This document shows positions 24,308 through 30,532 of a stretch of DNA of 51,554 nt, piece after piece. Each line of letters opens with the position of its first letter. Positions within the stretch are counted from its first letter, which is position 1. The translations under genes and the position numbers were made by a program. Below the pieces are notes generated by a model that worked only from the letters and a program-made list of their open reading frames with translations, had not been told where the DNA came from and did no database searches. This stretch comes from a virus. Lineage: Duplodnaviria; Heunggongvirae; Uroviricota; Caudoviricetes. The stretch is from the IMG/VR virus record IMGVR_UViG_2531839664_000034; one strand, given 5' to 3'.

Positions 24308-24334
24308 GATATTATTTTTGCAAAAAATAATATC
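24308..24334. promoter_or_regulatory. Near-perfect palindrome GATATTATTTTTG/CAAAAAATAATATC about 55 bp upstream of first recombinase gene
   Basis: 13-bp arms directly visible in an AT-rich tract preceding the AGGAG-ATG start at 24391; candidate operator or element-end site. Confidence 0.35.
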
Positions 24335-24390
24335 ATTGCATATTAATATATATCACCTATATAGAAATGTAAAATTTAAAGGAGATGATA

Positions 24391-25601
24391 TGAGAAAATA
24401 CAGCGTTAATTCTTTTGTTTTTGAAAGTGGAGAAAGGTTTTGCCATGTGATAGATAAAATATCAGGAGAACCTTTATATTATCCAAACCTCTATATAACT
24501 ACACAGGTCAGGAACAGATCAAAGTCGATCAACACGATGGAGGCTATTGGTGGAAATCTGGCATTACTATATCGATTTTTTTCTCTCAGGGGAATAGATA
24601 TAAGAGAGAGAATAGCTACGTTGCAATTTCTGGATCTTAATGAAATTGATGATTTGGCTGATTTCGCTTCAAAAAACTTCAAAGACAAAAGAACAACATT
24701 TTTGCATGAGCGTAGTGTTGTTAAAGAACCGACAAAATATTTCAGGTTGACCGTTATTATTAATTATCTTGAATGGCTGTGTGAAGTTCACACAATCGGA
24801 ACTAAGAGTAAAGATAATCAAAAAATAATGGACAGTTTTATTGATAAGCTAAAAATTAAAAGACCATCAAATGAAAATGGATATAAAAATCAAATCCATG
24901 AGAAAACATTAAGCAGAGAACAGCTTGATATTTTATTTGAGATAGTCAGACCTGGCTCTGAACTTAATCCTTTTGCTGATGAAGTTCAGTCAAGAAACCG
25001 ATTGATTATATTACTGCTTTTTTCTTTTGGGATCAGGGCAGGAGAGTTGTTAAATCTTCGCATCAGGGATATCGATTTTTCTTCAGGAATGATTGTAATA
25101 AAAAGACGACCCAATGATAAGTTTGATCCAAGAGTTAATCAACCACTTGTGAAGACTTGTGAGAGAATGTTTTCTGTGGGCAATACATTAATGGCTGAGT
25201 TATTTAATTATATTATGCAGGATAGGCGTCATGTGAATAATTCAAAAGGTAACGATTTTCTCTTTATTACATATAAAAAAGGATATTCACAGGGAAAACC
25301 ATTGTCTTTTTCTTCATATCATAAAATTATTAATATGATAAGCGAGACTTCACCTGAACTGGCCGAACTAACAGGACATAAATTAAGACATACATGGAAT
25401 TATGAGTTTTCCTCACTGGTAGATGGGATGGATGAGACTTTTTCGGAGGAAAAGGAAGAACAAATCAGATCGTATCTTATGGGATGGAAAACGGGTTCTG
25501 GAACGGCGCAAATTTATAACAGAAGGCATTTGGTTGAAGAGGCTCACAAAACTTCTCTTGCCATGCAGAACCAACTGATGGAGGGATACATTAATGAATG
25601 A
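24391..25601 (+). CDS. Tyrosine recombinase 1 of a recombinase trio (GinA-like)
   Basis: Catalytic-domain motifs GIRAGELLNLRIRDID (Arg I), HKLRHT (HxxR), GTAQIYNRRH (Tyr); strong Shine-Dalgarno AAAGGAG before ATG at 24391 (track ORF begins 24318). Confidence 0.7.
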
Positions 25602-25823
25602 TTTAAAATTTCAGGAAAATAGAGTGTTTTTAAAAGCAAAACAGTCTGACTATTCATTTTGTATCAATGATGGAAAGTGGAGATTAAACAGAAATAGCCT
25701 TGTTAATGTTGAGGCAGTATCACTTCTCCTTGAATCAAAATTAATTGATGGATATCTGAATATACGCTTGCTTTTTATGCCTGCCGATATAGCCCCAGCT
25801 ATGTATCGAAAATAAATAATGCC

Positions 25824-26957
25824 ATGAATGATTTTATTAGTAAGGTATCCCCTGAATATATTGATGAATCGGTTATCTTAAACTACAGAGCTTCACTGCC
25901 TAAATGGAAAATGCAGAATTTAGTGAGTTTGAGATGTTTTTTCATCAGATGGCATTCTCTGGGCTACTATGGCATTGATGAAAAAGTAATAACACTTCTG
26001 AAAGCAACAAGGTTAAAAGTTAAAGAAGCAGGGAATATCATAAGACAGGACAACCCGGATAAAGGGGCGTTGACTGATAATGAGCATGAGACTCTGAATC
26101 AGGCTATATACAGTGCTTACAGAAATAAAAAAATAGCACTGCATGAGTTTTCTGCGGCATTGTTAGCGAGTTTTTCAGGGCGAAGACCATTGCAAATCAT
26201 GTCATTAAAATTGAAAGATATAGTAAAAGAAAGGACACGCAATGGCGAAGTGAGGTTTCTTATAAATATTCCCAGAGTTAAGCAAGGTCTTGGGTTCAGG
26301 CAGTCTTTCAGGTCATTGAATATTAATAAATCTATGTTTGATATCCTCAACCAACAAGCCAGCGCCTCTGTTGCACTTATTGAATCTCAAATTGGCAGGG
26401 CACTTAAGCCAGCAGAAAAAGATGAGGTTCCCGTTTTCCTTGACAGAACCCATTGTAAGATGCTGGTCGGAAGAGAGAAAATCTTAGACTTACTAGTTTC
26501 TGACAGACTTCATGCATCAAAACATACTGTTGATATTATCCTGAAAAAAATAATTAAAAAAGAAAATGTAATTTCGGAAAAAACGGCACAGCCCATGAAA
26601 ATGAGTGCGCGCAGGCTTTGTTATACCATTGGGACAAGACTGGCCCGTGAAGGATGTAGCGTACAGGTTATTGCCGAACTGTTAGATCACTCTTCAATCG
26701 CCAGTGCAGGAATTTATATTGAAAACCTTCCCGACAATGCCGAAAAAATTAGTCATGCAGTTTCTAAAAAACTGGCCTTTCTTGCTAATGTTTTTCTTGG
26801 GAAAGTGCAGGGGGATAGAGCCAATGGCAATCATGATTTATTGACGAAAAAAACATGTTCATCCTGCGTCGATACTTCAACAATACCATGTCATAGCTGT
26901 ATTTATTTCAGACCATTACACAATAATGCTGATAACAAAGAGGTGATATATGAATAA
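25824..26957 (+). CDS. Tyrosine recombinase 2 of trio (GinB-like)
   Basis: 377 aa with SFSGRRPLQIMSLKLKDI (Arg), ARRLCYTIGTRLAREG and LLDHSSIASAGIYIE (H...Y) motifs. Confidence 0.6.
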   Translation: MNDFISKVSPEYIDESVILNYRASLPKWKMQNLVSLRCFFIRWHSLGYYGIDEKVITLLKATRLKVKEAGNIIRQDNPDKGALTDNEHETLNQAIYSAYRNKKIALHEFSAALLASFSGRRPLQIMSLKLKDIVKERTRNGEVRFLINIPRVKQGLGFRQSFRSLNINKSMFDILNQQASASVALIESQIGRALKPAEKDEVPVFLDRTHCKMLVGREKILDLLVSDRLHASKHTVDIILKKIIKKENVISEKTAQPMKMSARRLCYTIGTRLAREGCSVQVIAELLDHSSIASAGIYIENLPDNAEKISHAVSKKLAFLANVFLGKVQGDRANGNHDLLTKKTCSSCVDTSTIPCHSCIYFRPLHNNADNKEVIYE

Positions 26958-28765: not shown

Positions 28766-29053
28766 TCAGCGACTCCTGTGCAAAATACGCTGTTGCTTTT
28801 TTAATATATCTCGCTCAAGGCGAGCTTCATTTAACGCCTTACGCAGTTGCAGAATTTCAGATTCCAGTTCAGCCACCGTGCGGGAACCAGGAGTACCGAG
28901 CCCTTTTCTGGCGGCGGTAACCCATTGTCCTAAAGTGCCTTCAGGAAGAGATAATCGGGAAGCGCCTTCACTGATCGAAAGTTGATTTTCAAGAACCGTT
29001 CTGACAGCTTCGGCTTTGAACTCTTTAGAGTAACGTTGGGTTTTTCTGCTCAT
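28766..29053 (-). CDS. IS3-family OrfA (HTH/leucine zipper)
   Basis: 95 aa MSRKTQRYSKEFKAEAVRTV..., recalled as IS600-type OrfA. Confidence 0.8.
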   Translation of the reverse strand: MSRKTQRYSKEFKAEAVRTVLENQLSISEGASRLSLPEGTLGQWVTAARKGLGTPGSRTVAELESEILQLRKALNEARLERDILKKQQRILHRSR

Positions 29054-29117
29054 TATTAGCTCCTTCTGATGCCATTCTATTTCAGGAAGGAGTGTCCGTT
29101 AAACTCAGGCTACCTCA

Positions 29118-30102
29118 CTCGCCGGATAAATTTTATAGACACTCGCTTTGCCCTGAAGTAAGTGAAGATAAACCCCTTGATGTTATTCAGGTTTGCCACG
29201 CGCTTGGTTATCCACTAAATGATAAGAAGCAATGTATTGAAAAACTGAAGCGCACGAGTCTCGACGGGGGCACTTCGTTCCTGAATCCAAAAGACGGGCA
29301 TTACACACTGAGAAAACTATGGAAAATGATAACTGGATTATTACCTGCGGATTTTCCCTGGTTTGATGAAGAGAAATCAGTGAAATACAGCAATGCATTG
29401 TGTCTTTTGAATCTGCATCAGTGCCATGAGCTGAAAATGACAGTTGATTACGTATTATACAGGCCAACCTATGACTTCTTTACGCAGGATATAGAGAAGG
29501 CAAGAAAAAACAGACAGGTAATGAAAAATATCTTTGCGCGTTACGACTATCTGGATGATTCAGGCAAAGCGTTATATCTGCGTTCTCATCAGCCAAGACA
29601 TTTGCTAAACACACTTGCTCATCTCGGTGAATTATCAGAGTTAGATATCGCAAAATGGTCGGGTAGAGTCAGTGTGATGCAAAACCGAGACTACAACCAT
29701 ACTTCGCAGGAAGAGATGCTTGAAAAAGTCGGGACACTGAAGCTGGGGAATCATCGTTATTGCTACCAGCCCAAGCCTGGTGAGATTCTGCCTGTCGGGA
29801 CTGGAGTGTTTAATGATTCAGAGAGTGGGGCTATTCACTTAACACCTCATGGATATTGTATTCACGATTACGTCATCCCCCCTTGCAGGAAATTATCTGA
29901 AACCGCCCATTATGGATGGGTAGGGCATAGCAAAATGAGTGAACAGCAAAGAGAACAAAGCATCAAAAAAATCCGCTCACTTTGGCAAATGGCTAAAGAT
30001 GCTGTGGATGATGATCATTATGGTGCCGATAGATGGGTTGCTCACTACGAAGAAGTGTTGTCCATTTTAGACAAAAAGATCCCGAAAAAAATTAAAAGAT
30101 AA
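29118..30102 (+). pseudogene. Tyrosine recombinase 3 (GinC-like), C-terminal part
   Basis: Joining 27854 to 29121 (one copy of CTC) gives continuous frame ...WYESSPDKFYRHSLCPEV...; contains HQPRHLLNTLAH (HxxR) and downstream Tyr; reconstructed protein about 630 aa. Confidence 0.65.
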
Positions 30103-30136
30103 CTTATAAAAATTAATGAATTAAATAGGTGGTGAT

Positions 30137-30532
30137 ATGGCAAAACATTTAACAAGAAAAGATATAAATAGAATTAAAAGCACCATCCAGGCATGGAATG
30201 GTAAGTTAACATGGGATTCATTATGTGAATCTGTAAAACCACATATTGGAAAGAAACCCACTCGACAGTCATTGAGTATGCACAAAGATATAGTGAATGC
30301 ATATCTATTGAAAAAGGAAAAATTAAAACACGATGAAAATCCTCTTAAAAAACCTGCTAACCTGAAAATTGCAGCACAGAGGATAAAAAATCTGGAAGCG
30401 GAAAATGAAATTCTGAAGAAGCAAAACACCAGATATAAAGAACAGTTTACACTATGGCAGTACAATTCATATAAGTATGGACTTAAGCCACATCAGCTAA
30501 ATGAACCTTTGCGTGCAAAAAACGATAATTAA
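30137..30532 (+). CDS. Small basic coiled-coil protein, fourth gene of the recombinase operon (GinD-like)
   Basis: 131 aa, GGTGAT-N5-ATG start, lysine-rich with heptad-like C-terminus; position immediately after the three recombinase genes. Confidence 0.5.
   Translation: MAKHLTRKDINRIKSTIQAWNGKLTWDSLCESVKPHIGKKPTRQSLSMHKDIVNAYLLKKEKLKHDENPLKKPANLKIAAQRIKNLEAENEILKKQNTRYKEQFTLWQYNSYKYGLKPHQLNEPLRAKNDN

Follow-up and report, generated by a model that had tools for sequence, protein, structure and literature searches.

GInts are defined by an operon of four genes, ginABCD, and in Pseudomonas stutzeri all four gin genes are required for excision and integration (Bardaji et al. 2017, PMC5385486); the flanking repeats of GInts, attL and attR, are imperfect direct repeats of 10-17 nt (PMC5385486). 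In the portions of Hochhauser et al. 2023 (PMC10121019) drawn on here, GInts (Tn6571 family) are treated as defence-carrying elements in Escherichia coli. In the corresponding portions of Idola et al. 2023 (PMC10214605), RefSeq was searched by PSI-BLAST from P. stutzeri GinC and GinD, GInts were set apart from SEs (integrative elements whose circularization is strand-biased) and were found in 7.5% of Escherichia replicons. Here we describe a ginABCD locus in a 51,554-nt stretch of DNA (IMG/VR record IMGVR_UViG_2531839664_000034), called the window below, the numbering of which is used for all coordinates unless another locus is named. Positions 24231 to ~30600 of the window are very probably an inactivated site-specific recombination module of the GInt (Tn6571) family, residing in the chromosome of E. 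coli O121:H19.

A ginABCD module of the GInt family

The locus consists of four co-oriented genes that have the same order and similar sizes as those of the P. stutzeri GInt. It resembles the latter also in the pairwise homology of proteins A, B and C, in the small basic fourth protein, in its low G+C content (37% vs 47%; 29-37% across the region and 47% in the first 15 kb of the window), in its site-specific location and in the position of ginA ~160 bp from the inferred left end. The reference proteins were the fragments of P. stutzeri DSM 4166 GinA, GinB and GinC given in Fig. S1 of PMC5385486, to which the three proteins match collinearly by BLASTP: (i) GinA with 30% identity over 219 residues (E 3e-27); (ii) GinB with 22% identity over 216 residues (E 2e-5); and (iii) GinC with 39% identity to P. 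stutzeri GinC residues 481-540 (box II; E 4e-9), a match that spans the HxxRH motif and the YNH tyrosine. In the part of PMC10214605 used here, Additional file 10 has the locus of the O121:H19 strain 16-9255 as NZ_CP022407.1 5040776-5041759, an entry that is the post-IS600 piece of ginC, together with WP_024174260.1 (window 30137-30532), entered as ginD ortholog; the same file also contains the intact allele as well as that of O157:H7. The collinear matches and this ortholog table uphold the proposal of an initial annotation of the window that the layout is that of ginABCD and not the Tn554 pair of recombinases.

Among 5426 genomes scanned, the segment 24200-27860 is present with 100% identity in nine E. 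coli O121 / O121:H19 chromosomes and with 99.5% identity in ~19 further E. coli (28/5426 in total). A second gin allele, coding for proteins of 401, 437, 543 and 132 amino acids (aa) and unalignable at the DNA level, stands between the same flanks in O157:H7 and other strains (351/5426). The occurrence of gin modules in 379/5426 genomes agrees with the published figure for Escherichia replicons. The four genes keep the same order in these 28 + 351 E. coli genomes, all of them complete, as well as in 74 loci at species level (the loci of GinC relatives, one genome being taken per species), an arrangement that is far beyond chance.

GInt membership is thus supported and already known, since the locus has been catalogued and GInts have been described in E. 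coli. The slot downstream of alpA, the CTAG-N4-ACC junction, the integrase- and relaxase-bearing host island and the O121 lesions, all presented below, are not described in the portions of PMC10214605 and PMC10121019 drawn on here; only the nested architecture of this Enterobacterales gin lineage, with its specific slot, may be new.

According to the RefSeq annotation of strain RM8352, the locus is situated between ileY-ypjC-ypjA and a region of insertion sequence (IS) and prophage DNA, with the local gene order ypjA (frameshifted), DUF6387 gene, AlpA-family gene and ginA-ginB-ginC-ginD; the gin pieces are labelled 'hypothetical protein' and 'DNA-binding protein' by PGAP. The features of the region, including open reading frames (ORFs), are the following:

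22886..23749, plus strand: DUF6387-family gene (Pfam PF19924, E 1.4e-72), host island backbone, outside the gin module
23849..24055, plus strand: AlpA-family gene for a small helix-turn-helix protein (Pfam Phage_AlpA, E 7e-18), island backbone
24056..24230: alpA-gin spacer of ~175 bp, backbone, presumed target site (GTATTAGG...CATAA...AA)
24231..24241, plus strand: CTAGATTCACC, inferred left end of the gin module (CTAG-N4-ACC)
24238..24253: CACCTTATATAAGGTG, a perfect palindrome that overlaps with the left-end motif (inverted-repeat pair I17)
24308..24334: AT-rich palindrome pointed out by the initial annotation (inverted-repeat pair I1)
24390..25601, plus strand: ginA, 403-aa tyrosine recombinase, apparently intact (Pfam Phage_integrase, E 8e-14)
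25594..26957, plus strand: ginB pseudogene (453 aa in intact alleles; Pfam Phage_integrase on the distal ORF)
26950..27854, plus strand: 5' part of ginC, codons 1 to ~301
27855..29117, minus strand: IS600-family (IS3-like) insertion sequence of 1263 bp (ends TGAGGT...; CTC duplication)
29118..30102, plus strand: 3' part of ginC (joined protein 628 aa, with a Cys/His-rich C-terminus)
30137..30532, plus strand: ginD, 131 aa, basic, with a C-terminal coiled-coil-like segment, apparently intact (WP_024174260.1)
30533..30600: AT-rich, allele-specific tail 3' of ginD
30648..31060, plus strand: conserved 137-aa gene after ginD, without Pfam or NCBIfam assignment, restricted to the Enterobacterales lineage
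31456..32353, plus strand: downstream island ORF, interrupted by an IS3-family copy (32352-33662)

The four Gin proteins

The ATG at 24390, which is preceded by AAGGAG and is also the start of the 403-aa ginA called by PGAP, is the most likely start of ginA; a start at 24308/24318 was disfavoured on these grounds. The family alignment of GinA shows no variation at R216, K255, H330, R333 and Y376, and at least 90% of the sequences have W366. GinB, in its intact allele, is recognized by the NCBIfam equivalog NF041502 (386 bits, cutoff 350) and its family keeps R197, K229, R342, H365 and Y374, with an Arg replacing the His at the first position of HxxR. The initial annotation had credited all three plus-strand genes with the Arg, HxxR and Tyr signatures, which is correct for GinA and GinC and, apart from this Arg for His exchange, for GinB; all three proteins retain the catalytic Tyr.

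The Pfam integrase domain was found in GinA and GinB only. GinC gave no Pfam match at E <= 1 and no NCBIfam match at E <= 0.01, and a PDB sequence search returned a single weak and irrelevant match to a designed repeat protein (E 0.022). The AlphaFold model of GinC, built with 21 homologues, has a mean pLDDT of 76, and its top Foldseek matches are tyrosine recombinases only (Cre, XerH, Tre, Tn1549 integrase, lambda integrase and IntI); the E-values begin at 8e-4, and the best matches reach probabilities close to 1. The family alignment shows the conservation of R229 (PSRxSE), K261, H458-x-x-R461, R484/W481 and Y493, as well as of a C-terminal C548-x-H550...P556-C557 motif. Judged by the model, GinC is a large protein of the tyrosine-recombinase fold, an assignment made because of the structure model and the motif conservation, sequence-only searches having failed. 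Profile alignments (hhalign) of GinC with GinA and GinB were locally sensible and were used for residue mapping only; they pair R229 of GinC with R216 of GinA, and R461 and Y493 of GinC with R342 and Y374 of GinB.

GinD has a pI of 10.0 (28 Lys and Arg vs 13 Asp and Glu) and a C-terminal coiled-coil-like segment, in agreement with the basic 131-aa product that the initial annotation had assigned to the fourth gene.

The C-terminus of GinB carries a conserved C-x2-C...F motif (residues 432-438 of the intact allele), and GinC a conserved G-x-C-x-H-x-Y...P-C motif (residues 546-557). To judge from their residue patterns, these Cys/His motifs may bind zinc; no mention of them was seen in the parts of the GInt literature examined.

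Inactivation and history of the O121 copy

Compared with the intact allele of NZ_CP042896, the ginB gene of the window has an insertion of 2 bp (TA) at 25760-25761 (window GAATATACGC; intact allele GAATACGC). The resulting frameshift, which had been overlooked previously, breaks the gene into a first piece, 25594-25815, and a remainder that is out of frame and extends to 26957, and it is common to the nine O121 genomes with 100% identity. The IS at 27855-29117, named an IS600-family transposase by PGAP in a RefSeq record of identical sequence, is bordered by the CTC target duplication at 27852-27854 and 29118-29120, the very positions given in the initial annotation. Removal of the IS and of one CTC restores an open frame of 628 aa that is two residues off the intact E. 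coli WP_077516586, just as the initial annotation had predicted for a third recombinase of about 630 aa. Intact relatives continue downstream with a 217-aa ORF, a MOB relaxase gene and a NikA-like gene, and in the window the distal part of the island is missing: the relaxase end and the island integrase are absent, with IS and prophage DNA in their place. Owing to the ginB frameshift, the ginC::IS600 insertion and the loss of the distal island, the window copy is immobile, as had been supposed from the IS600 insertion.

The window and the locus of strain CFSAN061771 (L001; L-numbers denote the compared loci) are ~99.5% identical over 23441-30912 only, with differences being dense on both sides, and the breakpoints of this block fall inside the DUF6387 gene and the 137-aa ORF. 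Further on, window 30596-32353 is 96% identical to the O157:H7-type island. This mosaic pattern of identity implies that the allele came by homologous recombination into an O157-like backbone.

The IS3-family copy at 32352-33662 (1311 bp) that interrupts the ORF starting at 31456 is absent from that position in RM8352; an RM8352 IS located ~0.8 kb further on has the same sequence (100% identity) in the opposite orientation. Window 33791-49112 is collinear with RM8352, which implies two IS copies in the window, the second of them presumably at ~34425-35735; the strain of the window is therefore distinct from RM8352. From ~35300 to 51554 the window consists of lambdoid prophage DNA (RM8352 annotation), with genes for helicase/toprim, Q antiterminator, Dam methylase, a ParB-like protein and a nanS-type esterase and with a lysis cassette. 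On the other side of the island, the ypjA/EhaD autotransporter gene (20153-22469) is frameshifted and truncated and consists of a 653-aa ORF and a 108-aa beta-barrel ORF; its paralogue yejO flanks the same island type at proL in another strain.

Ends of the module

Where islands differ in their gin allele, their DNA homology runs up to the stop codon of alpA (24051-24063) and ends there. The ~170-bp spacer after alpA co-varies with the gin type and also occurs in gin-less islands; related spacer motifs are present in the gin-less islands L150, L106, L114 and L131, and the spacer alignment has conserved blocks. In two independent lineages, homology with gin-less relatives breaks directly before CTAG (L150 vs L021; L094 vs L007 and L089). 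The motif CTAG-N4-ACC precedes ginA by 157-167 bp in ~55 loci, which come from two gin lineages that cannot be aligned with each other and include some with only 52-68% GinA identity. From these alignments, we infer that the left end of the gin module is at 24231, with the reservation that the comparison is not isogenic, the left flank of L094 being only 85% identical to that of L007.

The palindrome at 24238-24253 is kept in the window, L013, L015 and L093. The initial annotation had suggested that the palindrome at 24308-24334 is an operator or an element-end site. It does exist; however, it sits 77 bp inside the module relative to the break at 24231 and is probably not the element end. Across nine diverged loci, invariance is confined to its centre, TTTTTG-Y-AAA (24313-24324), which might plausibly form the core of the ginA promoter or operator. 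In a promoter scan of 23800-24450, sites were no more numerous than in shuffled sequence and no promoter is claimed. The region is AT-rich and contains 18 inverted-repeat pairs within 361 bp, hence a palindrome alone is weak evidence.

The homology between alleles resumes at 30573-30600, 40-70 bp after ginD and just before the 137-aa ORF. A right end directly after ginD would mean a cargo-less unit of 5.1 kb. A second candidate right end lies after the relaxase/NikA-like block (L007 13134/13135 vs L094), where only an ATTT(T)AC-type resemblance was found; L094 is without the entire block from gin to the NikA-like gene (L007 5200-13134, 7.9 kb). L094 was rejected as a clean empty site, its right flank being 98.8% and its left flank only 85% identical to L007; its sequence identifies it as a recombinant relative and not an isogenic empty site, and the presence or absence of the 7.9-kb block could reflect a deletion. 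The search for an empty target site and for the other boundary, recommended with the initial annotation, provided the left break but not a clean empty site.

Proposed function and its weak points

We propose that, in the intact relatives, GinA (403 aa) and GinB (453 aa) would act as two tyrosine recombinases of ordinary size, together with GinC (628 aa) as a large protein of the tyrosine-recombinase fold and GinD (131 aa) as a small basic coiled-coil protein. The ginA stop and the ginB start overlap by 8 nt, as do the ginB stop and the ginC start, and the four genes would be transcribed as a single, translationally coupled operon. In the P. stutzeri model, the four genes join the ends of the element into a circle and insert the circle at a specific site. 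Likewise, the four proteins would jointly recombine the left site (~24231, just upstream of ginA) with a right site downstream; we infer the chemistry of the recombination, a requirement for all four proteins and the right end from this analogy.

Several points weigh against assigning this function to the locus. First, excision and integration have been demonstrated solely for Pseudomonas GInts and not for Enterobacterales members (PMC5385486). Second, a comparison of the left-end region with the 200 bp after ginD in 14 loci, with the right end taken to lie after ginD, revealed no attL/attR repeats above shuffled controls, a negative of low power given the strong AT bias of the DNA and the uncertain position of the right end; in the window copy, the right end is gone. 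Third, the profile pairings of GinC are statistically weak (probabilities of 0.5-3%), and the region of the GinC model that contains Y493 (485-535) is of low confidence. Finally, the published accounts of GinC differ: it is without the RHRY motif in the portions of Idola et al. (PMC10214605) drawn on here and misses only the first Arg according to Bardaji et al. (PMC5385486), whereas the GinC family analysed here keeps all catalytic positions, unlike both. In view of this discrepancy, GinC may have either a catalytic or an architectural role. A repeat noticed by eye (24264-24284 vs 30568-30590) was rejected, being no better than shuffled controls.

The absence of detectable imperfect direct repeats at the flanks, the Arg for His in the HxxR motif of GinB and the inactivation of the window copy are also the traits in which the module differs from the P. 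stutzeri GInt at the level of the gin genes themselves.

The gin module within a tRNA/tmRNA island

Unlike the P. stutzeri GInt, the E. coli copy lies inside a larger tRNA/tmRNA island with a P4-type integrase and with DUF6387 and AlpA genes, the described GInts being free-standing in a housekeeping gene. Unlike GInts, which are described as non-mobilizable, it is followed in intact E. coli relatives by a MOB relaxase module. The cargo of these relatives is defence-like (SIR2, ABC three-component, restriction-modification), as in the GInts recorded in E. coli. Such a setting admits another explanation, which we regard as possible yet doubtful: the proteins would belong to the Gin family, but the module would be resident or nested in a larger mobilizable tRNA/tmRNA island moved by its own P4-type integrase. 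The gin genes would then either serve the island (e.g. by cassette exchange behind alpA) or merely ride on it, their alleles being swapped by homologous recombination.

This explanation draws its strength from the architecture of the islands. In strain 20KM2762, the whole unit adjoins yejO and forms a 19.1-kb island bounded by an exact 21-bp repeat of the 3' end of tRNA-Pro, the sequence hallmarks of a classical tRNA island; its order is DUF6387-alpA-ginABCD, the 137-aa ORF, the 217-aa ORF, MOB relaxase, NikA-like, ABC three-component cargo and P4-type integrase. This backbone recurs at thrW, at leuX and at ssrA (the last in tandem with a P4-like satellite). DUF6387 and AlpA genes precede gin in 24 of the 74 GinC loci, all of them from Enterobacterales, and all 24 hold gin in the same slot, with the relaxase block downstream in nearly all; ~40 other GinC loci, Yersinia, Proteus, Idiomarina, Pseudomonas and E. 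ruysiae among them, share ginABCD only (canonical layout). At least four mutually unalignable gin lineages occupy the slot, ~170 bp downstream of alpA. Moreover, the 137-aa backbone gene begins ~115 bp after ginD, so that there is no cargo between them, and the 23441-30912 identity block, having its breakpoints in backbone genes, bears the signature of homologous exchange. The backbone also exists without gin. In a metagenome scan for DUF6387 (66 loci), gin was downstream in 36 and absent in 13 that have at least 3 kb of downstream sequence, and L091 is a minimal 4.5-kb island at proL with DUF6387, AlpA, two ORFs and an integrase. The existence of such gin-less loci indicates that gin is an add-on at a fixed place.

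On the other hand, two independent lineages lose their homology with gin-less relatives exactly at CTAG-N4-ACC, as is expected of a site-specific junction, and L094 is without the gin-to-NikA-like block as one unit. In addition, the closest characterised relatives are autonomous integrating elements (PMC5385486), and excision/integration is the only function known for any gin operon. We tentatively suggest, as a proposal of rather low probability, that the Enterobacterales GInt-type modules are not free-standing islands but site-specific occupants of the alpA slot, their hosts being tRNA/tmRNA islands with a P4 integrase, a MOB relaxase and cargo for defence.

Further observations concern the slot and its neighbourhood. 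In gin-less islands, the point behind alpA (after ...CATAATAwTTAA; L150 11749/11750) is a breakpoint for other cargo, and relative to L150 an extra insert of ~1 kb is located exactly at the slot in L106 (11770-12771). With other cargo at the same breakpoint, which is exactly the insertion point of gin and is as such also in line with the nested arrangement, the slot seems to be a general insertion point. The metagenomic island L124 (3979-4670) is without ginABC, and its ginD stands directly after the conserved pre-junction motif. The metagenome contigs L086, L128 and L146 hold a further gin lineage in the slot, with 40-54% protein identity to the window type, and their DUF6387 genes are 94-99% (L086 and L146) and only 51% (L128) identical to that of the window. 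The combination of diverged gin genes with near-identical DUF6387 genes in L086 and L146 means that the backbone and the gin module have separate histories.

Two non-coding blocks of ~80 bp (L001 21489-21571 and 23399-23473) are 72-97% conserved in dozens of diverged islands. They are located in the interval between the 217-aa ORF and the relaxase gene and just beyond the NikA-like gene, the latter block being preceded by the inverted repeat GCATAyTCCwTATGC; they are candidate oriT or regulatory sites. The ssrA site of CFSAN061771 (L004 10947-24410) has a tandem arrangement in which a complete P4-like satellite, with its integrase, psu, delta, sid-like, Icd-like and primase genes, is followed by the intact island; the island integrase comes after the satellite primase gene. 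The island integrase stands either beside DUF6387 or at the far end; a gin-mediated inversion was considered for this and found to be unneeded, as the integrase/att module can be plugged in either orientation on a circular map.

Comparison with other multi-recombinase elements

SEs and Tn554 share with the locus several tyrosine recombinases accompanied by a small helical protein, target-specific integration and one large recombinase of ~630 aa. That the locus is an SE (intA-tfp-intB-srap) instead of a GInt is very unlikely. An SE likewise has four genes, a small fourth protein and one large recombinase with the full catalytic motif, and the third protein here is large and retains R, K, HxxR and Y. 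However, the order of catalytic and non-catalytic members is different: the second protein of SEs (Tfp) is without catalytic motif, whereas the second protein here keeps R197, K229, R342, H365 and Y374 and matches Pfam Phage_integrase. Furthermore, proteins A, B and C correspond to GinA, GinB and GinC position for position, and the published clustering, in the portions of PMC10214605 drawn on here, splits GinC and GinD from Tfp and Srap as separate protein clusters and puts the locus in the GInt table. SEs have imperfect terminal inverted repeats of 13-19 bp, and in no locus did the 1.2 kb downstream of ginD contain an inverted copy of CTAG-N4-ACC, a weak negative given the uncertain right end.

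Three unrelated integrases from separate prophages or islands, or else a Tn554- or RIT-type element, can practically be discounted, for although island and prophage debris abounds in the window and tandem tyrosine recombinases define Tn554 and RIT elements too, the genes overlap by 8 nt and keep order and spacing in >100 loci of many genera, with neither phage genes nor att sites of their own lying between them, a conserved synteny that refutes the unrelated-integrase reading; Tn554 has two recombinases (TnpA and TnpB, with TnpC) and is without a third recombinase-fold gene, of which there are three here; and RIT, three tandem tyrosine recombinases with inverted repeats, has no conserved small fourth gene, membership in it being argued against by the conserved fourth gene of the locus and by the homology to Gin proteins. 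The three recombinase genes are therefore one conserved, coupled unit and not the remnants of three prophages, the alternative that had been named along with the initial annotation.

Implications

The element of the window is, in itself, a dead copy of a known mobile module, and its recognition mainly helps to correct the annotation. As a by-product, the comparison yielded a precisely placed candidate for the left junction, along with intact alleles from E. coli and natural counterparts without gin, which give material to test the mechanism of the three recombinases and their cooperation with, or exploitation of, integrase- and relaxase-bearing defence islands. If the slot-specific residence of the Enterobacterales modules in such islands is true, gin would be either an element specialised to parasitise mobilizable islands or the cassette-exchange machine of the island itself, and GInts would gain a route to conjugative mobilisation, which they lack according to the literature.

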